Below are positions 5,329 through 16,368 of a stretch of 64,000 bases of DNA, piece by piece. The DNA is taken from the sequence record PZ386957.1. One strand, 5' to 3'. Position numbers and translations under genes: made by a program. This stretch comes from a phage. A model generated the notes under the pieces. It did not search any database. It worked only from the letters and a program-made list of their open reading frames with translations, and had not been told where the DNA came from. Numbering within the stretch: the stretch's first letter is position 1; every line of letters begins with the position of its first letter.

Positions 5329-6801
5329 CTATCTCCATTCTCGTTTATATTTGCGGTCTTTATCAATCCACTGTTGCACCATCTCTATTGATTCAGGATC
5401 ATTTTCATCAAGGGTAAACCCTTTCTTCTTCATGCGGTATTTGAAACCATCAAATCTTTTAGCCTCATCACTGGTCATATTATGTTTCTTTTTAAATGAT
5501 TGCTTACTCTTACGTTGACCACAATCAAGCTGAATCATTTTATCAGTGATAATTTTTGCATTAGGGAAAAATTCTTTGATGTATTCAGCCAAAGGCCAAT
5601 CAGGAACATAGAGATTTACTTCCTGTGTTGATTCGTTATCACGCAAATTGCTACGGAGACACAACTGAAAAGCCGAATCAAGATAATCGGTTAAATGACG
5701 CGCATCAACAAAATCATTGACAGGAAGATCACAACTACGTGCTAATCCGCGAAGAATATCAATTTCCCACGGACGAGCGTTATAGCTATACAATACCGCA
5801 ACATTAGTATGATGTATATAATAGTTAAGACCATGTGGACCATATGATAAGCGAACACCTTTACCGCGTGTTGCGTATTCACGGTCTTTGTTTACTGTAT
5901 AGATGAAATTATCACCACATTCATTTATAACCAGGTCAATCATCTTTTCAAATGTACCATTAACCTTAGATTGATTTCGTGACCATCTCTCGGAATCGGT
6001 CATCAAAATGATGTTAACCCGGTGAGTATTCTTATACTCAGTAAAATACAATCTAGATCTTAACTCACTTTCGACAAATTCGCAACCAACATAATGTTTA
6101 AGATACTTCCCGCTATATGTTCGTTCCAGTTCAGCACTTGCTATAGTGACTTTCTTGAAATTTTCCCATACATGATGCTTTGTGTCGTTCAGGAAAATAA
6201 CCCGTGATCCATTTTCTCGATGGCCATCATTATGCTTCACCATAACGCGAATCTTACTATTCAATAACGCTCCATAAAGCGATGTAAGCGCACTATCGAT
6301 ATAATCTAACCCTTTCTTACCCTCATCTAGTTTTTGCTTGATATAGGGCGTTTCAGAAGGTTTTAGAATTAATTCCTGCATATCTTCCGATTTATCGGCT
6401 ATTGGTTCGCAATATTTCAGAATCATACCCAAATTAGATTTAAGTGCGCATTCTTCAAACTCAACCAATTTAGGAACTTCGTCAATATAAAGGCTATAAT
6501 CATTGAATAGCTTAGAAGGTTCCAGCGAGGCAAGCGCGTTATGTGTAATAAACAACACATCAATATCATCTCTAAGAGATTGAATAATAGACGCTTGCAC
6601 TGTCATGTAACTTTTTAGTTTGCTGTCACTATCAATCAAGACAGCACGACCGCCTAACTTCATAAACTTATTGTAAGATTGTTCACTTAAAACACGCGTT
6701 GGTGAAGCAATAACCGCTTTTTCTTTTGTCTCTAGGACGTGGGAAAGAATTGCGTCAGTCTTCCCCGCTGCTGGTAATGCGATTAATGTTTCAATTTTCA
6801 T
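5329..6801 (-). CDS. P-loop NTPase of unknown function (helicase-like N-terminus, basic C-terminal tail)
   Basis: 490 aa; N-terminal Walker A-like LPAAGKTDA, Walker B-like LYIDE; Lys/Arg-rich C-terminus. Confidence 0.6.
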   Translation of the reverse strand: MKIETLIALPAAGKTDAILSHVLETKEKAVIASPTRVLSEQSYNKFMKLGGRAVLIDSDSKLKSYMTVQASIIQSLRDDIDVLFITHNALASLEPSKLFNDYSLYIDEVPKLVEFEECALKSNLGMILKYCEPIADKSEDMQELILKPSETPYIKQKLDEGKKGLDYIDSALTSLYGALLNSKIRVMVKHNDGHRENGSRVIFLNDTKHHVWENFKKVTIASAELERTYSGKYLKHYVGCEFVESELRSRLYFTEYKNTHRVNIILMTDSERWSRNQSKVNGTFEKMIDLVINECGDNFIYTVNKDREYATRGKGVRLSYGPHGLNYYIHHTNVAVLYSYNARPWEIDILRGLARSCDLPVNDFVDARHLTDYLDSAFQLCLRSNLRDNESTQEVNLYVPDWPLAEYIKEFFPNAKIITDKMIQLDCGQRKSKQSFKKKHNMTSDEAKRFDGFKYRMKKKGFTLDENDPESIEMVQQWIDKDRKYKREWR

Positions 6802-7109: not shown

Positions 7110-7217
7110 TTACTTAATGATACTTACTTTACCAGATCCGTGACAATGAGCGCAACACCCATCACCACGCAATCCTGTTCCGTTACAGTGTTTACACTTC
7201 TTCAAAGGTAAAGCCAT
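7110..7217 (-). CDS. Small zinc-ribbon protein (35 aa)
   Basis: Hand-translated MALPLKKCKHCNGTGLRGDGCCAHCHGSGKVSIIK; CxxC...CxxC pattern; below the 60-aa track cutoff. Confidence 0.45.
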   Translation of the reverse strand: MALPLKKCKHCNGTGLRGDGCCAHCHGSGKVSIIK

Positions 7218-7257
7218 TATGGCAAATAAAGCAATAATGAACACCGAAACTAAATTC

Positions 7258-7527
7258 TCAATAATCATAAATCGCCCTCAGTTCTTTATAGCCTCCAATG
7301 TGCTCGTTGTCAATGAATATCTGGGGGTATACAAATCGGAGGCTGTCTTTACCCAACCTCCCCGCCAGTTCTTCAATCATATCACGGTCGGGAATAATGT
7401 CAACCCCGACCTGCTTGAATACTGGTTTAAGTGTATACGGAATACCCAGATCATCCAGTAGCTTCATTGCACTAATACAACCATAACAATGATAAGCCTC
7501 TTTCGGTATACCGTATATCTCGATCAT
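7258..7527 (-). CDS. nrdH: Glutaredoxin-like protein (NrdH-like)
   Basis: 89 aa; CYGC redox motif near N-terminus; YPQIF...HIGGY glutaredoxin fold signature; T4 nrdH position. Confidence 0.75.
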   Translation of the reverse strand: MIEIYGIPKEAYHCYGCISAMKLLDDLGIPYTLKPVFKQVGVDIIPDRDMIEELAGRLGKDSLRFVYPQIFIDNEHIGGYKELRAIYDY

Positions 7528-8024
7528 TTCTCAGCCTTTAATCTTTCCAGTTCTTCTTCCAGTTCCTTGATGCGTTGTTCTCGTTCAAAATCACGCTGTA
7601 ACTTAGTGGCGAATACTCGTTTAAACTGATTGTAATCATCGATTTTAAACACTTCTTCTTCGCCATAGCGACGTACAGAAACTTCGTAGTTATTGAAGAA
7701 TTGTTGCATCATTGCTTCGGATGATAGTTCTGCTGATACTACTTTAAAATATTGATCTTCTGTAGGCGAAAACCAATTGCAAGCATAAAGATAAACCTTT
7801 TCATTGTCTGGACACTGGTAAGCCTTACCATCGATTTCAATCACAGAAACATATTCAGGTATAGTAGATGAATCAATAGCTAAGACTTTAAACTGACGGT
7901 CCCCGATAAACTCGGAGATCGCACGATTCGCATCACTGATCGCAAATGCTTTACGCGCTTGTTCGTTTTTCCACTGATAGGTCATGCCAACAACAAACAT
8001 ATTACCAACCTCGCTCTTTACCAA
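7524..8024 (-). CDS. Paralog-family protein (GKTY-WK module + C-terminal coiled coil)
   Basis: 166 aa; MTYQWKNEQARKAF module; C-terminal KELEEELERLKAEK. Confidence 0.6.
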   Translation of the reverse strand: MVKSEVGNMFVVGMTYQWKNEQARKAFAISDANRAISEFIGDRQFKVLAIDSSTIPEYVSVIEIDGKAYQCPDNEKVYLYACNWFSPTEDQYFKVVSAELSSEAMMQQFFNNYEVSVRRYGEEEVFKIDDYNQFKRVFATKLQRDFEREQRIKELEEELERLKAEK

Positions 8025-8835
8025 TCAAAAATTCAACTTCACGACGTTTAATGTCTTCTTGAAGGTCTTTAATCTTCTGGCGATCTTGCATGATTTCGTC
8101 CATTTTGTCAAGTGCTGCGATGAAATCATCGAAACGTTCAAAGGTTTTACCTTCATTTGCTTCGCCAAATTTAACCATTGTCAGGCCGTAACGACTACTA
8201 AACAGACGTTTCAACTGTCCAACGACCTTAGAATCATCGTTCACCTTTTCTTCTGGTTCTTTCACTGTTTCAACTTCACGAAAATATTTTCGTTCAAGCC
8301 CAACAAACCACACAGCATCAACATCATCATCAACACCCGCCGAATGAGGATTAAATGTTCCACAAGCATTATCATTATTGACGTCGATCATAGTAACGAA
8401 ACCAACAGAATCAACGGAAGATACCGTAAAAGTCTCATCTCCTATCCAATCAGCAATTTTACGGTTGATATTAGAACAGTGAGAAAACGTCACTTTTGCG
8501 TTTACATCTTTCCAAGTATAAGTTTTACCAACTTCCCATTTAGGAGGAACTTCTTCAACTTCACGAAAGAATTTTCTATCGAATGGACTAAAGAAATATG
8601 TTGATGTCCAAATGTCTTTTCCTGTAGCAGTTTTCGCCGTATGATAAACACCGTCTAGCTCTATTGCATCAATCCAACCGTTACCCTCGATCTCGATGAT
8701 GGTAAATGGCTTGTCACCAATAGCTACACTAATATCGCTGTTAAGTGGAGAAAGACAACCGTCTACGTTAGTAATAAACTCAGTTTTAGCGTTTTCGTCT
8801 TTCCAAGTGTAAGTTTTACCAATTTCCCATTTCAT
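8002..8835 (-). CDS. Paralog-family protein with two tandem GKTYTWKD modules
   Basis: 277 aa; WEIGKTYTWKDENAKTEF and WEVGKTYTWKDVNAKVTF, each followed by ERKFFREVE-type motif; coiled-coil tail. Confidence 0.6.
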   Translation of the reverse strand: MKWEIGKTYTWKDENAKTEFITNVDGCLSPLNSDISVAIGDKPFTIIEIEGNGWIDAIELDGVYHTAKTATGKDIWTSTYFFSPFDRKFFREVEEVPPKWEVGKTYTWKDVNAKVTFSHCSNINRKIADWIGDETFTVSSVDSVGFVTMIDVNNDNACGTFNPHSAGVDDDVDAVWFVGLERKYFREVETVKEPEEKVNDDSKVVGQLKRLFSSRYGLTMVKFGEANEGKTFERFDDFIAALDKMDEIMQDRQKIKDLQEDIKRREVEFLIGKERGW

Positions 8836-8847
8836 AATATAATCCTC

Positions 8848-9327
8848 TTAACCGATTTTATCAAGTTCGTTTAATGCTTTCTCTGCTTCCTGTATAGCTT
8901 GCACCCTTTCCGGCATTTTGTCAAGAAAATCTTTCAACTCTTCAAAACTGGAGATATGACGCAAGGCGTTAGCACCGATAGCCGCATGTGATTTGCATTC
9001 AAAGCGAATTTTATAATTATCCATCGCCAACTTGAGAAGATCAATTAGTTTAGATTCTTCTGGAATAATAATTTCTTCAAATCTGCTACGGTCATGATCC
9101 AGAAACCAACAAGATAGACCTACATCGGTTGAACTCATATAAGTTCCATCATGAAGATATACAGACCGCACGTATCCTTTTTTCGCATCAACCGACGCAA
9201 CTTTAAACGGTAATCTCAGATATTTCAAATAATCAACATCATACCATTTAAAAAATTGGTTTGCATCTTTTACATCTTTCCACGCATAGGTCTTACCAGC
9301 TTCCCATTTCATAATATCATCTCTCAT
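8848..9327 (-). CDS. Paralog-family protein (GKTY-WKD module)
   Basis: 159 aa; KWEAGKTYAWKDVKDANQF; coiled-coil tail. Confidence 0.6.
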   Translation of the reverse strand: MRDDIMKWEAGKTYAWKDVKDANQFFKWYDVDYLKYLRLPFKVASVDAKKGYVRSVYLHDGTYMSSTDVGLSCWFLDHDRSRFEEIIIPEESKLIDLLKLAMDNYKIRFECKSHAAIGANALRHISSFEELKDFLDKMPERVQAIQEAEKALNELDKIG

Positions 9328-9856
9328 TTTTGATACGTGATTCTAATTGGATCATACGGTCGCGCGTTTGCTTGTATTCACGGATAGCACCGATCCGGCT
9401 AGGCATACCATCTAGGACGCTCTTAATCCCTTCTAGGGTAGTGATTTTAGCAATGCTATTATGTAACCCCATCTTATCGATCAACTGAATGTCGTAGGCT
9501 TCCATAAGCAGTCCCAGACGTTCTAAGGTTAAATCTTGTTCTTTATCTTCTTCCGATTCTGGAATCTTAGGTTCAATAGTAACTTCGGTAAAGAAACGAC
9601 GCTCACCACCCCAAAACCACACACCGGAACAGTCAATAGGGGATTCTTTTAAAGTCATGGAGTCGAAATCACTACCAATAATAGTAATTTCTCTAACATC
9701 ACCATCGTCGTCAATGTCTTCTACCTTAAACGGGCGACCAGCCAACAGGTCCATAATACATCTGTTAATACCAGACGAAAATTTAGTCAGTTCGGCTTTC
9801 GACGCTTCGCATTCAATCTTGTAAGTTTTACCAACTTCCCATTCCATAATAATCAC
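9317..9856 (-). CDS. Paralog-family protein (GKTY module)
   Basis: 179 aa; EWEVGKTYKIECEASKAEL; ERRFFTEV motif; coiled-coil tail. Confidence 0.6.
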   Translation of the reverse strand: MIIMEWEVGKTYKIECEASKAELTKFSSGINRCIMDLLAGRPFKVEDIDDDGDVREITIIGSDFDSMTLKESPIDCSGVWFWGGERRFFTEVTIEPKIPESEEDKEQDLTLERLGLLMEAYDIQLIDKMGLHNSIAKITTLEGIKSVLDGMPSRIGAIREYKQTRDRMIQLESRIKNER

Positions 9857-9857
9857 C

Positions 9858-10367
9858 TCAAATAATTTTCACTGGAATACTATTAACAATCTTGTATTGT
9901 ACTTGATTGTCAGACCCCCGCCACGGCTTCTTCGTTGGCATATCTTTAATATAACGCCCATCGATGAACATGTCAACTGATTCTACAATTTTTCTTTGCT
10001 CATCATTCAATTGGTCAAGGGTATAACCGGACCATAGCCAAATATCTTTATTTGGCATCCATGATTTTACTTCATCGATGATCCGCTGTACACCCTTTAA
10101 ATTGCGTTTATACAGTGGATCACCACCTAAGAATGTTAGCCCCTGAATAAAATCAGGTCTAAGCAGATCCAGAATCAATCCCATTGTATCATCGGTGAAT
10201 GGTTCCCCGTTCTTAGGATTGAGTAGGCTAGCATTAAAGCAACCATCACATGCGTGTGAACATCCGGTAACGTAAAGGGAGACTCTCACTCCCTCACCGT
10301 TAACCATATCACAATCTTTAATATCGGCATAGCGTAGTTTGCCGTATGTATCAGAACTCATATTCAA
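9858..10367 (-). CDS. nrdG: Anaerobic ribonucleotide reductase activating protein NrdG (radical SAM)
   Basis: 169 aa; CSHACDGC (CxxxCxxC) radical-SAM cluster motif; adjacent to nrdD. Confidence 0.9.
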   Translation of the reverse strand: MNMSSDTYGKLRYADIKDCDMVNGEGVRVSLYVTGCSHACDGCFNASLLNPKNGEPFTDDTMGLILDLLRPDFIQGLTFLGGDPLYKRNLKGVQRIIDEVKSWMPNKDIWLWSGYTLDQLNDEQRKIVESVDMFIDGRYIKDMPTKKPWRGSDNQVQYKIVNSIPVKII

Positions 10368-10503
10368 TTACCCCGAACTCGTTTACAATCTGCGCTTTAT
10401 AGTAACCACCGCGAGATGCTAATAGATAAGCTGGGCTTAGGTATTCGTATTCACGGATTTCTACTTGTGCGTTTTCAGTTTCCCAAATCAGTAAAGTCCA
10501 CAT
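10351..10503 (-). CDS. Small hypothetical protein (about 50 aa)
   Basis: The track ORF 10351-10578 runs through the promoter at 10546-10574; the ATG at 10503 follows RBS GGAGAA. Confidence 0.35.
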   Translation of the reverse strand: MWTLLIWETENAQVEIREYEYLSPAYLLASRGGYYKAQIVNEFGVIEYEF

Positions 10504-10578: not shown

Positions 10579-11127
10579 TTATTTTAAATTTTTTCGAATG
10601 TATTCAGACCATTCCTTCCCTGTCAGTTCGGTCCCATTCTGGAAACTGAAATATTCATACGGCATCGAGTCAAGATAAAACAGGATCATACATCGCGCCA
10701 TATAATACCAATCACGATTAAAGTAAACTACGTTATCACCAGTACCATCAACCCCTTTATCATAACCATCGCTGGTACGGGCGACCCATTGAATAGTATC
10801 ATTTTTCTCACGGATAGTCACAGGTTCCCAATATCCAGCACATCCAGCATGACCACACGAACAAGTAAGGAAATATTGCCCTTTTGCTTTGTTGTCATCC
10901 CATTCACGATGGATTGGTTCGATCTCGTGAAACAGTGCCAAACAATCATGATTATGCAACACTGGCTTACCATCAATCAATGCATGGAATGTATACAAAC
11001 GACCCGTAGACAAATAGCTATCCTCACGCTCAACCAGTTCAATAGCAATCTTTTTAGCTCGTTCTTTGTGTCGTTGTGCTTTACGCTTACGGTTTAATGA
11101 TTTCATATTCACCTCACACATTATCAA
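10579..11127 (-). CDS. Hypothetical protein (Cys/His-rich)
   Basis: 182 aa; basic N-terminus; CSCGHAGCAGY cluster. Confidence 0.55.
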   Translation of the reverse strand: MIMCEVNMKSLNRKRKAQRHKERAKKIAIELVEREDSYLSTGRLYTFHALIDGKPVLHNHDCLALFHEIEPIHREWDDNKAKGQYFLTCSCGHAGCAGYWEPVTIREKNDTIQWVARTSDGYDKGVDGTGDNVVYFNRDWYYMARCMILFYLDSMPYEYFSFQNGTELTGKEWSEYIRKNLK

Positions 11128-11665
11128 AGGTCGCGATATAGTACATTATGAAAATGAGAACTTGCATTACCAATATTGTAGATAACAAATTCTTCATCCG
11201 GCGCTTGCGCTACAAATTGAGTATGAGCAACCGCTACGACTTTAAAAATACGATCCGTGATCTTGTGCTTAATTTCTGCCCCTACTTCCATAGGAACATA
11301 TTCATTTGTTTCTGTTTCAGTCGCAAAACAGCCATCTTCTTCATAAGCACGAACAAATCGGTCGCAATCAGTACGCTTAACAAATTCAAGAGTATATAAT
11401 TCTCGTGAATTGTCGGTATAGACCAATACAGAATTATTATGATAGCGAATCACATACAGGTTATTATCATCGTCAATTACGCAAAAGCTACGGATTCCTT
11501 CGCCTTGACTCCAGCAGATATTAACCACCGTTCCTCTAATAAAAAAACTTTCCTTTAAATTAAAACTAGTCAATGTGCTAGCGTGCATTTTAACAACAAC
11601 ACCATCACCAATTTCCAGTTTACGAAGTTTAACTTCTTTGCTCAGTACACAAAACATCATCATAT
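11124..11665 (-). CDS. Hypothetical protein
   Basis: Start reassigned to MMMFCV after the promoter/leader at 11692-11719; about 180 aa. Confidence 0.55.
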
Positions 11666-11691: not shown

Positions 11692-11719
11692 ATTATACAT
11701 GAGCTAATCATGTTGTCAA
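11692..11719 (-). promoter_or_regulatory. Promoter TTGACA-16-TATAAT with CATCGAAAC leader
   Basis: Minus-strand read; preceded by nrdD terminator. Confidence 0.65.
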
Positions 11720-11725
11720 CACCCC

Positions 11726-11757
11726 AAAACGAAAAAGCCGACCCTTTCGGATCGGCT
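11726..11757 (-). terminator. Intrinsic terminator after nrdD
   Basis: GCCGATCC-GAAA-GGGTCGGC hairpin then TTTTTCGTTTT. Confidence 0.75.
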
Positions 11758-11762
11758 AAAAA

Positions 11763-13625
11763 TTACATGTGCTTAACGCGGTTTACCATCTCGGAGTGTT
11801 TCCCGTGGTTAAATGGACGCAGATCAACAGATCCAAGATATCCACTAACGCGGCGGATAACATTCATCTTTTCCAGATTGTCATTGCCGCAATCAGGGCA
11901 AACAAAACCAGACTCGGTCGCTCTCATTTCCTTATTAGATCCGCATACATGACATACATCAGAAGGAGTATTAACACCGAAGTAGTGCAATTTATCCATT
12001 GCATAGTCTACTACAGTTTCAAGACCTTTCAGGTTGTTTTTCATGTCTGGGAACTCAACATAAGAGATCATGCCACCGGACGCCAGACAGTGATAATCTT
12101 TCTCAAAGTCGATTTTCTCAAACGGTGTAACCTTCCGGTCTACGTCAAGGTGGAATGAGTTGGTGTACCAGTCTTTATCGGTAGCACCCTTAACAATACC
12201 AAATTGCTCTCGGTCCAGTCGATTAAATCGATAGCAAAGGCTCTCGGCTGGCGTACCGTAAAGACTAAAACCAAGTCCGGTTTCGTCCTTCCATTTTTCA
12301 GTATAATGACGCAAGATCTTAAGAATATGTTTACCGTATCGCTGCGCATCTTCCGAATCAAACGGATGAACACCAAACAGGACGCTCAATACCTCATGTA
12401 AACCAATATACCCAAGAGAGATACTAGCGCGACCATCTTTCAGCACTTCCAAAATTTCATCGTTTTGATGAATACGGAAAAATGCACCTTCGGTATACAG
12501 TACAGGGGCAACATTGGCTTTAGCACCTTTTAAAGCGTCTACGCGACTCATGAGAGCATCAAAACAAATAGGCATACGATTAGCTAGCTCTTGTTCGAAT
12601 AGCTCAATTCTGCGCATTACAGACGCTTTACCAGCACGACGCGCGGCAATAAGGGCAATACGCGGAAGATTCAGAGTCACAACACCCAAGTTATTACGTC
12701 CGTCTAATACTTCTTCGCCTTTCTCATTATGCCACACACCCAGGAAGCTACGACAACCCATCGGGCTAACCGGAACACTAGATCCGGTGATACTACGGTT
12801 ATTCTTCGCAGAGATATAATCAGGGTAAAGACGCTTACTAGAACATTCCAATGCAAGTTGCTTAATGTCGTAGTTCGGATCTTCCGGTTTAAGGTTTAAT
12901 CCTTCTTCTAAGAACATCACCAGCTTAGGAAACACCGGAGTTATACCATCTTTACCTAAACCTTTAGTTCGAACTTTCAGGATCGCTTTCTGAATCAGTT
13001 TTTCTTCCCAGCTAGTACCCATACCAAAGGTTAAAGTCACAAAAGGCGTTTGACCGTTGGTGGAGAACAAAGTGTTGATTTCATATTCCAACGCTTGATA
13101 CCCGTCTAAAGTTTCTTTTTCTGTCTTCTCTTGTGCATAGAGAGTATCAGCTTTGATTCCGTAGGTTTCGGCATCAGCAAGGTGTTTATGATATGTTTTC
13201 TCAACATACGGTGCTAACACCTGATCGATGTTTGCAATTGTGGTCCCGCCATATTGATGACTTGCCACCTGTGCGATAATTTGAGCGGTTACAGCACAAG
13301 CAACGCCGATTGATCTCGGACTTTCGATTTGTGCACTACCCAATTTAAAACCATTCTCTAACATGTCCTTGAGATTAACAAGACAGCAGTTAGTAAACGG
13401 CATAGCGGGTGCATAATCCATATCATGATAATGAATATCACCGTCTACATGCGCTTTATAGATGTGCTCAGGTAACACGGTTTTAGCAATCTGTTTAGAC
13501 ACAGCGCCAGCAATCAGATCTCGACGTGTCGGGAATGTTCGCGCGTCTTTGTTCGCGTTCTCTTTGCTTACTTCGTTTTCTTTACCCGTTGCAATCTCTG
13601 TAATGTCTTTGATTAGTTTTTCCAT
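11763..13625 (-). CDS. nrdD: Anaerobic ribonucleoside-triphosphate reductase NrdD (class III, glycyl radical)
   Basis: 620 aa; C-terminal CPDCG zinc motif and glycyl-radical motif RRVSGYLG; uninterrupted ORF. Confidence 0.92.
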   Translation of the reverse strand: MEKLIKDITEIATGKENEVSKENANKDARTFPTRRDLIAGAVSKQIAKTVLPEHIYKAHVDGDIHYHDMDYAPAMPFTNCCLVNLKDMLENGFKLGSAQIESPRSIGVACAVTAQIIAQVASHQYGGTTIANIDQVLAPYVEKTYHKHLADAETYGIKADTLYAQEKTEKETLDGYQALEYEINTLFSTNGQTPFVTLTFGMGTSWEEKLIQKAILKVRTKGLGKDGITPVFPKLVMFLEEGLNLKPEDPNYDIKQLALECSSKRLYPDYISAKNNRSITGSSVPVSPMGCRSFLGVWHNEKGEEVLDGRNNLGVVTLNLPRIALIAARRAGKASVMRRIELFEQELANRMPICFDALMSRVDALKGAKANVAPVLYTEGAFFRIHQNDEILEVLKDGRASISLGYIGLHEVLSVLFGVHPFDSEDAQRYGKHILKILRHYTEKWKDETGLGFSLYGTPAESLCYRFNRLDREQFGIVKGATDKDWYTNSFHLDVDRKVTPFEKIDFEKDYHCLASGGMISYVEFPDMKNNLKGLETVVDYAMDKLHYFGVNTPSDVCHVCGSNKEMRATESGFVCPDCGNDNLEKMNVIRRVSGYLGSVDLRPFNHGKHSEMVNRVKHM

Positions 13626-13669: not shown

Positions 13670-14164
13670 TTATTTTACCAGTTCTGCTAATTCTTTTTCC
13701 GCCGCTTCCAGTTCAGCTTTCAGTTGTTTGATCTCTTGTCGCTTCTTATTAGCGGCTTCCTGCTTACTATTTCGGATAACCTGATCTAGATACAACTCCC
13801 AATCCTGAATATTTTTGATAATGTAGCCGTCAACATTAATTGGTCGGAGATTCAGTACAGCTTCCAGTTTAGTTGCAAAAACTTTAATTGCTGGGGTGAA
13901 GTATTCATATTCGTTATCTTCAAACCAATAACCTAGACTTGCATTCTCAATACGAAGATGAAGTTTAAGATCAAGGTCTTTATCATCGGTATATAGGTCT
14001 TTTACACACCCCATAGAATTAACAACAACTTTAAAACGAATTTTATCTACACCACCAAAAACATCTTCAAGAATATCAGCAATTGAGCTATTAGCGCAAG
14101 ATTGGTCGCTGAATGCGTCAAGGTTTTCTTTAGTTACAGTATACCAAACATCTTGTACCCACAT
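13670..14164 (-). CDS. Paralog-family protein (related module + coiled-coil tail)
   Basis: 164 aa; ASLGYWFEDNEYEYF motif; C-terminal KQLKAELEAAEKELAELVK. Confidence 0.55.
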   Translation of the reverse strand: MWVQDVWYTVTKENLDAFSDQSCANSSIADILEDVFGGVDKIRFKVVVNSMGCVKDLYTDDKDLDLKLHLRIENASLGYWFEDNEYEYFTPAIKVFATKLEAVLNLRPINVDGYIIKNIQDWELYLDQVIRNSKQEAANKKRQEIKQLKAELEAAEKELAELVK

Positions 14165-14193
14165 AATATAATCCTCTCGTTGTTAAGTGGGAG

Positions 14194-14221
14194 TATTATA
14201 GCATACTCCCTTCGCATGTCA
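14194..14221 (-). promoter_or_regulatory. Promoter TTGACA-16-TATAAT, -10 inside inverted repeat GGGAGTAT...ATACTCCC
   Basis: Minus-strand read upstream of 13670-14164. Confidence 0.65.
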
Positions 14222-15397
14222 AGCACTAACTTTTTTCTTTACTGCTTTCACCTTCTGGCGAATTGCTCGAATCTCTTCGATCTCTTTTTCAGTCTCTTTA
14301 ACAATTTCTTTGCGATTCTGAATATCTGTATCGAGATTATCATCAAGTTTAGGCAGCATGTCAATCAAGAACTTTTTAAAGTCTTTCAGGTTTCGAATAA
14401 CAGCACCTTCGCCCATTACCGCAACACCCACACCATCCGGCAGATCACCAAACAGCTTAACCAGTTCAGACAGATGATCATGATCTTCTAGTGCTTCTTC
14501 CGGTTCAGATGGCAGTTCAACAAAGTTATAACGTTCATCATTGCTGATCAAGTGATACCAGCAAAGCCCGAAAGATTTCGGTGTATATTCTACACCATCA
14601 ATTTCAACCGCGTCAACACTTCCATAATCATCTACTTTAGTTACCTTAAATCCTTGTCCCAGCTTTTGAACAATTTCAACAACATGACTTGATACAGTTT
14701 CAGCGGTAAACCAATATGGCAAATTATGCTGATTTGGCTTGTAGCGTTCACCTACTTTAAATCTCTGACCATCCGCTTGCATAGAATGAAATTGTTGTTT
14801 CGTGATTTCCGCGAAGTATTCAAATTCGCCACCATCAAACACACAAGCCCATTGATCACAAAAACGATCTGCCTTAACAGTTTCACCTTTCGCGGTGATC
14901 ATGGTAGCTGATCCGTGCAATTCTTCTTCAACTAAAAAGCCATATTCGACAAAATCAACAAGTTTCATAGCTTCTTTGTGATCTGGATCATGCTCTCCCC
15001 AGAATCGCTTAAATTCTTGCAAACCTTCTGGGGTAAACGAATAACATTTACCTTTTTCAAAGTAAGTCGGCATTGCATCCTCTTTCTTGTTCATCGCTTC
15101 GTATGCCTCTTTTGAGATGCGTTTAAAGTATTTACGCTCATTGTGCATAATCATAGTAGCCCAATAATCAACAATATCATTAGCGGAATAAACTACATCT
15201 CCAGCTTCAATAGTAATAACATGACCGTGGTCATCTTTTTCTAATACTTTAAAGCCCTTTTCTACGATTTCAGCAACCCGAATATGACCACGGCGCGAAG
15301 CATCGGTCAGAATAATTGAATAGCGAGAAAAGTCTAGAAACTCATCTTTACCGCCTTCACGGAATGCATAGTAATGACCTTCAAAGAATTTAGCCAT
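14219..15397 (-). CDS. Paralog-family protein with multiple tandem modules
   Basis: 392 aa; repeated GFKV..D..G.V..IE.DG..Y units; NERKYFKRISK motif; coiled-coil tail. Confidence 0.6.
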   Translation of the reverse strand: MAKFFEGHYYAFREGGKDEFLDFSRYSIILTDASRRGHIRVAEIVEKGFKVLEKDDHGHVITIEAGDVVYSANDIVDYWATMIMHNERKYFKRISKEAYEAMNKKEDAMPTYFEKGKCYSFTPEGLQEFKRFWGEHDPDHKEAMKLVDFVEYGFLVEEELHGSATMITAKGETVKADRFCDQWACVFDGGEFEYFAEITKQQFHSMQADGQRFKVGERYKPNQHNLPYWFTAETVSSHVVEIVQKLGQGFKVTKVDDYGSVDAVEIDGVEYTPKSFGLCWYHLISNDERYNFVELPSEPEEALEDHDHLSELVKLFGDLPDGVGVAVMGEGAVIRNLKDFKKFLIDMLPKLDDNLDTDIQNRKEIVKETEKEIEEIRAIRQKVKAVKKKVSA

Positions 15398-15428
15398 AAT
15401 ATAATCCTCTCGTTGTTTAGATGGGAGT

Positions 15429-15457
15429 ATCTTACTACTCCCGTTTCATCATGTCAA
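15429..15457 (-). promoter_or_regulatory. Promoter TTGACA-17-TAAGAT, -10 inside inverted repeat GGGAGTAG...TACTCCC
   Basis: Minus-strand read upstream of 14219-15397. Confidence 0.6.
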
Positions 15458-16038
15458 GCGTTAAATGACTTTTGGATCTCTTTCAGTTCAGCTACTTTAT
15501 CGGCGCTATATTTTGCTTGATGTTCCATGCGCTTAAGCTCACCTTTGATATAGGTTTCTAGCTTAGGTTTATTCTCAATCAGAAAATCTTTCAAGTCATC
15601 GGCATTTTTAAAGTATAGCTGATTATCAAAGCTAAAATCTTCCAGCGTCAAGGATACCAAAGAAGATTTCGCAAACAAGTTAATCAGATCTTCCAGAGAT
15701 TCTTCTTTCTTAACTGGTTTCATTTCTTCAAACTGCTTTTTAGTGATGCGTTTAAAGTATTTGCGCTCGTTTGCAGCAATCAGAACAGATGCACCTTCAT
15801 ACCCATGAGTTTCTACCAGATACACACGCCCCATCGCATCAACAGTGAGAACTTTAAAGCCGTTACAAAGCACGTCATACAAGAACTTATTATGTTGCGG
15901 ACATCGTTTGATAAATTCTGCGGCTGTTTCTGCACTACGGAAAGTGTAATAACGACCTCGTTCAAAAGCAGCATCATTTGAAGACTTAGCCGGATACAAT
16001 TTATACGTTTTCTGTACCATAATATAATCCTCTATCAT
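15454..16038 (-). CDS. Paralog-family protein
   Basis: 194 aa; NERKYFKRITK motif shared with 14219-15397; coiled-coil tail. Confidence 0.6.
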   Translation of the reverse strand: MIEDYIMVQKTYKLYPAKSSNDAAFERGRYYTFRSAETAAEFIKRCPQHNKFLYDVLCNGFKVLTVDAMGRVYLVETHGYEGASVLIAANERKYFKRITKKQFEEMKPVKKEESLEDLINLFAKSSLVSLTLEDFSFDNQLYFKNADDLKDFLIENKPKLETYIKGELKRMEHQAKYSADKVAELKEIQKSFNA

Positions 16039-16307
16039 TTCACTAATTGAACAGCACGAAACAGAATGCGGTCACACGGAAGAAGCATAAATTCCCAACG
16101 CGGATCAAAGTCTTTAGCGGTATATGTTTTCCCATCAACCGAGATTTCACTTACATAACCAATAGGTGACACTTTAAGAACAGTAAACCCATTCTTGATG
16201 ACTTCGTAGGTATCTTTCAAACCTTCGTAGTCATCCTCTAGGAAGTCTTTACGTGCTTGCTCAGATTTAAAAACATAGGCCACACCGGATTTAAACATCT
16301 TACGCAT
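16035..16307 (-). CDS. Paralog-family protein (single module)
   Basis: Start reassigned to MRKMFKSGVAYVFKSEQARKDF after promoter at 16339-16368; about 90 aa. Confidence 0.5.
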   Translation of the reverse strand: MRKMFKSGVAYVFKSEQARKDFLEDDYEGLKDTYEVIKNGFTVLKVSPIGYVSEISVDGKTYTAKDFDPRWEFMLLPCDRILFRAVQLVK

Positions 16308-16338
16308 TGTTGATTCTCCTTCTTGATTAGATGGGAGT

Positions 16339-16368
16339 ATTTTACTACTCCCATTTCTTATTGTCAAC
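16339..16368 (-). promoter_or_regulatory. Promoter TTGACA-17-TAAAAT, -10 inside inverted repeat GGGAGTAG...TACTCCC
   Basis: Minus-strand read upstream of 16035-16307. Confidence 0.6.

Follow-up and report, generated by a model that had tools for sequence, protein, structure and literature searches.

The four genes that lie back to back on the minus strand between nrdH and nrdG of this phage very probably encode conserved paralogues of the T4 GoF/Frd.2 family, a family of early accessory proteins of the T-even phages. (The window, i.e., the whole stretch of DNA that we analyzed, is 64,000 nucleotides from a Krischvirus, an RB49-like T-even phage of E. coli.) All four proteins combine an N-terminal module of ~90 amino acids, or head, with a C-terminal domain of ~65 amino acids, or tail, that ends in a long helix. 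As judged from aligned genomes, purifying selection on the tail is strong while that on the heads is relaxed, and the heads behave as discrete cassettes that can be exchanged, duplicated, or deleted, apparently via recombination at repeated sequences at the module boundaries. Taken as a whole (the identity of the family, its mode of evolution, and the mechanism that we propose below), this explanation seems to us probable, on balance.

A preliminary description of this DNA gave the lengths of the four proteins as 166, 277, 159, and 179 amino acids. These values are correct for the longest open reading frames (7524-8024, 8002-8835, 8848-9327, and 9317-9856). If start codons are chosen as ATGs with a Shine-Dalgarno sequence upstream, in agreement with the RB49 annotation, then the likely starts are at 8000, 8835, 9312, and 9847 and the proteins have 158, 277, 154, and 176 amino acids; a Shine-Dalgarno sequence precedes the ATG in each of the four genes. 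With the corrected starts, the module forms the N-terminus of each protein (MFVVGMTY, MKWEIGKTY, MKWEAGKTY, and MEWEVGKTY). We will term the genes g158 (7524..8000, the orthologue of RB49p048, with the N-terminal module at 7725-8000 and the C-terminal domain at 7527-7724), g277 (8002..8835, RB49p049, with a first module at 8548-8835, a second module at 8263-8547, and a linker and C-terminal domain at 8005-8262), g154 (8848..9312, RB49p050, module at 9061-9312 and C-terminal domain at 8851-9060), and g176 (9317..9847, RB49p051, module at 9572-9847 and an acidic linker and C-terminal domain at 9320-9571), all on the minus strand. In the RB49 annotation, all four are only "hypothetical." The downstream flank is nrdH (7258-7527, minus strand), a glutaredoxin gene that is recognized by Pfam Glutaredoxin, by phrog_22, and by the RB49 annotation, and the upstream flank is nrdG (9858-10367, minus strand), the anaerobic ribonucleotide reductase activase (Pfam Fer4_12, E = 2e-43; phrog_626, E = 2e-60). 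The array is found in about 59 Krischvirus genomes, nearly all of which carry the four genes intact. In T4, the interval between nrdH and nrdG contains gp55.8 alone, which supports the view that this location is a plastic site.

The preliminary description was right that these genes are a genuine tandem family of paralogues. Single-sequence phmmer comparisons against all 599 open reading frames of the window linked the four genes at E values of 1e-7 to 1e-16, which confirms, in a non-circular way and at the level of sequence, that their homology is far beyond chance. Also, all four proteins match phrog_5347 over their full length (E values of 1e-59 to 1e-70; 3e-59 for g158, 2e-59 for g154, and 1e-65 for g176). 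The presence of the module twice in one gene was borne out as well: an HMM finds two domains in the 277-amino-acid protein (E = 6e-40 and 4e-38), and the predicted secondary structure repeats itself (see below). An ERK(Y/F)F-type motif had been reported after the module, and it is carried C-terminally by five out of five modules. The starting motifs need more care. The four near-identical motifs that had been quoted come from only three genes, as two of them belong to the two modules of g277; the remaining gene, g158, has a degenerate version, VGMTYQWKNEQARKAF. The exact GKTY-x-WKD pattern is present in only three of the five modules.

The window had been said to contain eight members of the family, and an HMM derived from the window and a family-wide HMM agree on eight genes with 11 modules. 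The other four genes form a second array on the minus strand, between nrdD and gene 49 (13670..16367). These encode proteins of 164 amino acids (13670-14164), 392 amino acids with three modules (14219-15397; annotated as frd.2/goF in the RefSeq entry for RB49), 188 amino acids (15454-16020), and 90 amino acids (16035-16307), the last being a module without a tail; all were identified as open reading frames with HMM hits. Three of the four second-array proteins have the same C-terminal domain as the first array, and the PHROG matches of the second array are to phrog_8944 ("goF mRNA metabolism modulator"), phrog_15067, and phrog_16115. Scans of the eight family proteins against Pfam, NCBIfam, and PADLOC gave nothing meaningful. 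When homologues were sought with the family alignment in a word-indexed search, most of the matches were orthologues of two paralogues. A search of 1.84 billion proteins also returned about 12 long proteins (476-4352 amino acids), which we rejected as members of the family: their matches were partial and spread over multiple stretches throughout, and Pfam scans of four of them showed Fn3, cadherin-like, or other repeat proteins. Such long repeat proteins score because many partial hairpin matches add up.

The link to T4 rests on several profile comparisons. The module HMM that we built from the window aligns end to end with residues 4-91 of T4 GoF (26.3 bits, E = 4e-10; GoF is also known as ComC-alpha, NP_049624, and belongs to PHROG 622). 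In hhalign, the window family matches GoF with 95.5% probability (E = 1.6e-8) and, more weakly, Frd.2 (72%, E = 3e-5). The four proteins match phrog_622, which contains both T4 GoF and Frd.2, at E values of 5e-21 to 2e-3, and reciprocally, GoF matches phrog_5347 at 6.5e-7. So, the array is not "unexplained by the T4 backbone," as had been proposed: its module corresponds to GoF's N-terminal domain in T4, and GoF and Frd.2 as well as MotB.1 were described in 2025 as an "LSm-like/SH3-like" family of early proteins (Kim et al., 2025, PMC12152347). The preliminary description was to be refuted if the family mapped to a well-characterized T4 protein, and this is only half the case: the T4 relative is named and genetically known, but it is not well characterized. 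The homology is confined to the head. Because GoF aligns to positions 2-136 of phrog_5347, we considered that the C-terminal domains of GoF and Frd.2 might match the first half of the tail, and we rejected this, as direct hhalign comparisons of the tails to both of these domains gave nothing. The C-terminal domain of ~65 amino acids is specific to the Krischvirus paralogues. A C-terminal domain of another type than those of GoF and Frd.2 still falls within the definition of the family (PMC12152347).

In structure predictions, the module is a small SH3-like beta-barrel ("LSm-like" in the literature) in which strand 1 is followed by an insertion of two helices. It is modeled as a bent, five-stranded antiparallel beta-sheet whose nearest solved folds are of the FeoA/IdeR type, as in the GoF family. 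For g176 (modeled as the 179-amino-acid version), AF2 gave a mean pLDDT of 78.8, with the barrel and its two inserted helices at 85-94. A low-confidence acidic linker (residues 97-107) is followed by a separate alpha/beta domain, with an alpha-beta-beta-alpha pattern and then a helix at residues 151-178. The layout of g277 is the same, except that a beta-alpha-alpha-beta-beta-beta-alpha-beta pattern occurs twice (residues 8-93 and 105-188), with the long helix at residues 235-274. The tail is thus predicted to be an alpha/beta domain of ~65 amino acids ending in an amphipathic helix of 20-40 residues, joined to the head by a linker that is predicted to be short, acidic, and disordered; confidence in the models of the tail is moderate to low (pLDDT of 50-80 in g176 and lower in g277). 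The tails had been described as coiled coils, for which support is partial. The tail is indeed shared and a long terminal helix is predicted, and the fraction of hydrophobic residues at the a and d positions of that helix is 0.55-0.71, as compared to 0.19-0.32 elsewhere, but this heptad pattern extends over only 3-4 heptads. Weak profile matches to coiled coils in the PDB (such as GCN4, HEXIM1, and CtIP) had E values of 0.004-5, and searches of the PDB with profiles of the module or of the full-length alignments gave only matches that reflect chance or coiled-coil composition. Most heads are acidic (pI of 4.4-4.7). Among the four genes, only g154 has a near-neutral module (pI of 7.8), and the 188-amino-acid protein of the second array has a basic one (pI of 9.6).

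We estimated dN/dS across six genomes by the Nei-Gojobori method, both gene-wide and domain-wide. Whole genes gave values of 0.07-0.42, heads 0.23-0.38, and tails just 0.01-0.10 (with dS of 0.10-0.21 for the C-terminal domain), and none was above 1. The array had been called diversifying, and in the sense of positive selection the gene-wide and domain-wide values do not support this. In another sense the term fits: in three of the four genes, the N-terminal module either is missing or comes in deeply divergent alleles with sharp boundaries (44-67% amino acid identity between types), while tails are 89-100% identical. DNA identity falls from 96-100% to 30-78% exactly over the head of g158 (~7690-8000) and the second head of g277 (~8200-8540). 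Within g158, identity is 58-78% in the head vs. 96-100% in the flanks; allele types share 58-67% of the amino acids of the module, and dN/dS is 0.26 for the module and 0.10 for the C-terminal domain. Orthologues of g277 come as 277-278 amino acids (second module of type A), as 274 amino acids (type B, which is 44-46% identical to type A), as 174-185 amino acids with a single module, or with the second module only, and the second head is deleted in phage ELT4. In an alignment of 30 sequences of g277, all 59 invariant columns are in the tail, for which dN/dS is 0.045. The divergent 162-amino-acid alleles of g176 are 47-51% identical in the module and 99% identical in the C-terminal domain. Across the six genomes, dN/dS for g176 is 0.37 for the module and 0.013 for the C-terminal domain, and its linker has an indel polymorphism at 9501-9545. 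The most conserved member is g154, with a mean amino acid identity of 98.9% across the six genomes and a gene-wide dN/dS of 0.07. (Among natural isolates, g158 is split in ELT4 and g176 is absent from KFS-EC.)

How did the head alleles arise? The array had been described as locally amplified, and if this means recently, then it is not supported: the paralogues are only 23-40% identical to each other and their orthologues have been kept across the ~59 Krischvirus genomes. We considered gene conversion between the paralogous loci as the source of the alleles and rejected it, as alleles cluster by locus. Because the divergent heads are synonymously saturated (dS > 1), old divergence followed by cassette exchange fits better than DGR-type hypermutation in place. 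The DNA itself contains repeats at the module boundaries. A 73-nt direct repeat is present at four of the five module starts (8481-8553, 8772-8844, 9249-9321, and 9784-9856; 66-74% identity to the reference copy), with g158 as the exception. Also, in g277, copies of a separate 28-nt repeat are located at the ends of the modules (8264-8291 and 8549-8576; 86% identity). These copies are 285 bp apart and bracket the segment that is missing in ELT4 and in the single-module orthologues, so they fit with module loss by recombination between repeats.

The likeliest candidate for an early promoter feeding the transcription unit of the array is a PeSL-like element just downstream of nrdD (11692..11757, minus strand). 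Its terminator-like stem occupies 11757-11736 and is followed by a sigma-70 promoter with a perfect consensus, TTGACA-16-TATAAT, at 11719-11692; PeSL motifs associated with nrdD have been described in RB49 and phi1 (PMC2839356). A second sigma-70 consensus promoter lies upstream of the array at 9976-9948, and the array genes are co-oriented and tightly packed with the nrd genes. The late promoter TATAAATA does not occur on the strand of the array nearer than 27342, i.e., within 17 kb. From this genomic context and from T4 GoF, we infer that the array genes are expressed early and play a role in host interaction.

Our proposal for a mechanism is tentative, and as a whole we rate it as possible rather than probable. 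Early promoters of the sigma-70 type would drive synthesis of the proteins ahead of DNA replication. The variable head would be a recognition surface for RNA or, more likely, for protein of the RNA-handling machinery of the host or the phage (we judge a protein to be the likelier target because the heads are acidic), and the constant tail would provide dimerization or oligomerization, or contact with a common partner. The net effect would be to tune the fate of mRNA while the host is taken over, in a manner that is non-essential and depends on conditions. We propose this effect because the suppressor genetics of T4 goF suggest it: GoF(D25Y) stabilizes the gene 41 mRNA post-transcriptionally, with a longer half-life (Kim et al., 2025, PMC12152347). 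Also, the other rho-suppressor site of GoF, G84 (mutated in G84R), corresponds in the alignment to the K/R of the ERKYF motif, a position that is basic in three of the five array modules. Dimerization would fit with the partial migration of GoF and MotB.1 as dimers (PMC12152347) and with the terminal amphipathic helix that is predicted in the array proteins. On the other side, neither wild-type GoF nor wild-type MotB.1 had a clear effect in a reporter assay, and deletions of the T4 family members had no phenotype in the laboratory (PMC12152347). GoF was the only protein recovered from GoF pull-downs in uninfected cells (PMC12152347), which speaks against a host partner that is both abundant and stable. 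A more specific version of the mechanism is that the seven paralogues that share the tail use it to form homo- or hetero-oligomers that display combinations of swappable SH3-like heads, so as to retarget a constant activity to host factors that vary between strains. We consider this to be a long shot. If it were true, then the exchange of head cassettes would be a mechanism of host adaptation, and the constant activity might be sequestration, or protection of RNA or protein.

A rather unlikely alternative is that the modules are LSm/Hfq-like RNA chaperones that contact RNA directly and stabilize or remodel particular transcripts of the phage or the host, with the array supplying several RNA specificities. 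The LSm-like fold that has been proposed for the family and the increase in mRNA half-life with GoF(D25Y) (PMC12152347) are consistent with this, as are the K/R at the position equivalent to G84R in several modules and the neutral or basic modules of g154 and the 188-amino-acid protein. However, the strong acidity of most modules speaks against their binding RNA directly. The modules also begin with a strand and have two inserted helices instead of the N-terminal helix and Sm motifs of LSm proteins, and they have no match to Pfam LSM/Hfq at E ≤ 1. Furthermore, wild-type GoF did not show an effect on RNA, and neither ring oligomers nor other multimers of GoF or MotB.1 were predicted confidently by AF3 (PMC12152347).

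The heads could instead be decoys or inhibitors of polymorphic host immunity proteins, so that these would be anti-defense or host-range factors and the swapping of heads would reflect an arms race. This could account for the sharp cassette polymorphism, with gain and loss of modules in the heads only and in genomes that are otherwise 96-100% identical; also, single members are dispensable in nature (as in ELT4 and KFS-EC) and the array lies within a plastic early region. We think that it is improbable because dN/dS is below 0.42 everywhere, with no gene-wide or domain-wide signal of positive selection, and because g154 is 99% conserved. (The proteins are not similar to any defense-related model in PADLOC either, although PADLOC excludes anti-defense genes.) As to whether the array might be a chance cluster of junk reading frames, or the decaying remnant of a duplication with no current function, some natural isolates do have disrupted or deleted members and the T4 family members are non-essential (PMC12152347). 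Nevertheless, almost every genome has the four genes intact, each ATG has its Shine-Dalgarno sequence, and the N-terminal domains fold confidently in AF2. The purifying selection on the C-terminal domains (dN/dS of 0.013-0.10 at dS of 0.10-0.21) effectively refutes this idea, and we give it hardly any weight.

Returning to the GoF family, it is among the many abundant T-even early proteins that are unexplained some 50 years after the goF/rho genetics. Our results turn four "hypothetical proteins" into GoF-family proteins and overturn nothing that was known. Krischvirus is a natural experiment that is absent in T4, with nine paralogues, twelve heads, and a common tail, and it includes naturally occurring variants in which heads have been swapped or deleted, or genes lost, while the genomes are otherwise isogenic. 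The constant tail vs. the variable head, and the basic residue at the G84R site, provide reagents and hypotheses for finding the binding target of the family.

It is useful to compare the array to known systems. The SH3-like domains of FeoA and DtxR/IdeR (CATH 2.30.30.90) are the nearest solved folds but have no sequence relationship to the module: there is no Pfam FeoA match, all scores are under the usual significance, and the metal-binding histidines are absent from the modules, as they are from GoF. Hfq and the other Sm (LSm) proteins are alike in having a five-stranded, bent antiparallel sheet, in the broad sense of a small beta-barrel, and in the genetic link between GoF and mRNA stability, but in our modules a strand comes first and two helices lie between strands 1 and 2. 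Frd.2 and MotB.1 of T4 differ in being single-copy, single-module proteins with a different C-terminal domain. T4 GoF has an N-terminal domain of ~90 amino acids that is homologous over its whole length and is predicted to be an SH3-like barrel with the same structural neighbors. GoF also has the same order of N-terminal domain, acidic linker, and small C-terminal domain, and both are small acidic proteins encoded in a pre-replicative gene region. In contrast to GoF, the Krischvirus proteins have a C-terminal domain without detectable homology to that of GoF (hhalign probability of ~1% or lower) and an extra long terminal helix, and they include a two-head protein (g277) and a three-head paralogue. 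Also, in T4, goF adjoins gene 39, while RB49 has no goF at that position and the Krischvirus members form tandem arrays next to the nrd genes of the anaerobic pathway. What appears to be new is the expansion of the family (nine genes in Krischvirus vs. three in T4), a distinct C-terminal domain that is common to seven paralogues, and the strongly asymmetric evolution of heads and tails.

Four minus-strand ORFs between nrdH and nrdG (166, 277, 159, and 179 aa) have the coordinates and lengths reported in a preliminary description. The starts judged most plausible are ATGs at 8000, 8835, 9312, and 9847, since a Shine-Dalgarno sequence precedes each of them and since they agree with the annotation of phage RB49. 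The resulting proteins (158, 277, 154, and 176 aa; hereafter g158, g277, g154, and g176) all start exactly at a shared motif, which is degenerate in g158 (VGMTYQWKN). The preliminary description listed four such motifs, one per gene, but two of them belong to one gene, g277, whose module is doubled. The region 7200–10400 has 93–97% identity to some 59 genomes of Krischvirus, a genus of Straboviridae phages (RB49, JSE, phi1, JK32, and others); Shigella phage JK32 is the closest relative. The RB49 counterparts, RB49p048–p051, lie between nrdH and nrdG and are each annotated as "hypothetical protein."

That these genes form a paralogous tandem family was described correctly: the family is real and conserved. 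Judged by sequence comparison, the homology of the four genes is well beyond chance. Single-sequence phmmer searches of all 599 ORFs in the window linked them at E values of 1e-7 to 1e-16, and all four proteins match phrog_5347 end to end (E = 1e-59 to 1e-70). Pairwise identity is 23–40% among the five heads (N-terminal modules of about 90 aa, N1 and N2 in g277) and 14–28% among the four tails (C-terminal domains of about 65 aa). A 73-nt DNA repeat is present at four of the five module starts (the exception is g158).

The family's identity was suggested by PHROG cross-matches to "goF mRNA metabolism modulator." Residues 4–91 of T4 GoF (141 aa) align to an HMM of the window's heads (26.3 bits, E = 4e-10); Frd.2 and MotB.1 match it more weakly. 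With hhalign, the window family matches GoF at 95.5% probability (E = 1.6e-8) and Frd.2 at 72%, and the four proteins match phrog_622, whose core is T4 GoF and Frd.2 (E down to 5e-21). The four genes belong to the family that Kim et al. (2025, PMC12152347) described. Thus, the array, which had been called unexplained, adds new members to a family that was already known. RB49, Krischvirus, paralogues, and tandem gene arrays go unmentioned in the main text of that paper; the paper reports that GoF(D25Y) stabilizes gene 41 mRNA post-transcriptionally. In three of the five heads, the residue aligned with the GoF G84R suppressor position (the K/R of the ERKYF motif) is basic already, which is possibly a useful detail. 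The tail has no relation to the C-terminal domains of GoF and Frd.2 that hhalign could detect.

An AF2 model of g176, made from the 179-aa ORF (pLDDT 78.8), has a confident N-terminal barrel (pLDDT 85–94) with two helices inserted after strand 1, followed by a disordered acidic linker and a C-terminal alpha-beta-beta-alpha unit with a helix at 151–178. The model of g277 repeats the head pattern twice and has a terminal helix at 235–274. Foldseek found nothing in the PDB below E = 0.5, and the sole matches in a viral structure library were uncharacterized proteins from large myoviruses, T4-like ones and a few others. Given both outcomes, we file the head as a predicted GoF-type, SH3-like small beta-barrel. 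As modelled, it lacks the N-terminal helix of LSm proteins, and it has no Sm motifs. The coiled-coil character proposed for the tails is plausible but is drawn from three to four heptads and from weak, composition-type PDB matches.

Heads and tails evolve very differently. Across six Krischvirus genomes (Nei-Gojobori method), dN/dS was 0.25 for g158 (head 0.26, tail 0.10), 0.42 for g277 (N1 0.31, N2 0.38, tail 0.045), 0.07 for g154 (head 0.23, tail 0.018), and 0.17 for g176 (head 0.37, tail 0.013). The tails are very strongly constrained, although their dS (0.10–0.21) is not low. Among 30 orthologues of g277, all 59 invariant columns are in the tail. There was no evidence of dN/dS above 1 in any of the four genes in these comparisons, so "diversifying," in the sense of positive selection, is not demonstrated; what is seen is an exchange of head cassettes on a tail that stays constant.

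Three of the genes (g158, g277, and g176) have deeply divergent head alleles with saturated dS. The allele types are 58–67% identical (amino acids) in g158, 44–46% in the second head of g277 (type A vs. type B), and 47–51% in g176, whose tails are 99% identical. The divergent heads are sharply bounded DNA cassettes (about 7690–8000 and 8200–8540) with flanks that are 96–100% identical. Conversion between paralogues was ruled out as their source, as the alleles cluster by locus. Many g277 orthologues (174–185 aa) lack the second head; in another form, it is the first head that is missing. Because the 174–185-aa forms include both type A and type B downstream junctions, the second head was apparently lost repeatedly and independently. 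Modules were likely lost by recombination between repeats at module boundaries, as a 28-nt repeat at module ends brackets the deleted g277 segment. Individual members can be lost in nature as well: phage ELT4 (1825–2321) has g158 broken into two ORFs, and in KFS-EC there is no close orthologue of g176 (best tblastn match 30%). These loss-of-function variants could be ready-made knock-outs. Separately, the acidic linker of g176 (9501–9545) is an indel hotspot (orthologues of 174–182 aa), with 65–80% DNA identity over 45 nt and flanks at 95–100%.

We propose that the variable head is the specificity element. The D25Y/G84R genetics of GoF point to RNA, and a pull-down with GoF from uninfected cells found no partner. 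However, most heads are acidic (pI 4.4–4.7), and their SH3-like, FeoA, Tudor, and KOW neighbors are mostly protein-binding modules, so we lean towards a protein in RNA handling as the target, not towards direct binding of RNA. The constant tail, with its terminal amphipathic helix, would mediate dimerization or contact a common partner, which also fits the behavior of GoF and MotB.1 as dimers on gels (PMC12152347).

The array genes run in the same direction as the nrd genes and are closely packed with them; each has its own Shine-Dalgarno sequence, and there is no late promoter near the array. Just downstream of nrdD and 1.8 kb upstream of the array, a GC-rich, terminator-like stem-loop (AGCCGATCCGAAAGGGTCGGCT) and its T-rich tail lead straight into a perfect sigma-70 promoter (TTGACA-16-TATAAT; 11692–11757, minus strand). 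This element matches the "promoter-early stem-loop" (PeSL) cassettes of RB49 and phi1 (PMC2839356). By it lies a 178-aa minus-strand ORF (11124–11660, phrog_14838), which looks like another allele-exchanged gene: among Krischvirus its mean amino-acid identity is 86% (dS 0.56, dN/dS 0.19), a divergence equal to that of the variable family genes, while its neighbors are about 97–99% identical. Between gene 55 and the nrdH cluster is a conserved 490-aa minus-strand ORF (5329–6801, RB49ORF044c) with a P-loop-like N-terminus (ALPAAGKT), for which the 2006 RB49 genome paper gives a weak DEAD/DEAH-helicase hint.

Two HMMs, one built from the five heads and a broader one from 100 family modules, each found exactly four further family genes in the window, a second minus-strand tandem array between nrdD and gene 49 (13670–16367). 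This bears out the preliminary count of eight members (8 genes with 11 modules). The second array encodes proteins of 164 aa, 392 aa (three heads; frd.2/goF in the RB49 annotation), 188 aa, and 90 aa (head only), and three of the four carry the tail of the nrdH–nrdG array. Another perfect sigma-70 consensus promoter, with an extended −10 TG (14195–14222, minus strand), lies just upstream of the 164-aa gene (start 14164). Outside the region equivalent to the window, the sole extra member is Dc2 (211 aa; RB49 11993–12628), encoded immediately upstream of the helicase gene 41. Dc2 matches the family HMM (E = 2e-8) and, by Foldseek, ECD7 Dc2 (E = 6e-6). Because T4 GoF(D25Y) acts on the leader of the gene 41 mRNA, the position of Dc2 may be meaningful, or it may be a coincidence. 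When 1.84 billion representative proteins were searched with a profile, 98 clusters were found at E ≤ 1e-3; nearly all are proteins of 75–390 aa that have one to three modules, starting at residue 1, along with C-terminal domains of various kinds. About 12 long matches (476–4352 aa) were judged spurious; the four scanned with Pfam were Fn3, cadherin-like, and other repeat proteins.

Three modest observations are new and make the family more tractable: its expansion in Krischvirus, the tail that its members there share, and the polymorphism of the head cassettes. With Dc2, Krischvirus has 9 genes with 12 heads, whereas T4 has three single-head genes. In T4, gp55.8 alone separates nrdH from nrdG, and mobC lies between nrdG and nrdD; thus, the Krischvirus arrays sit at known plastic junctions.
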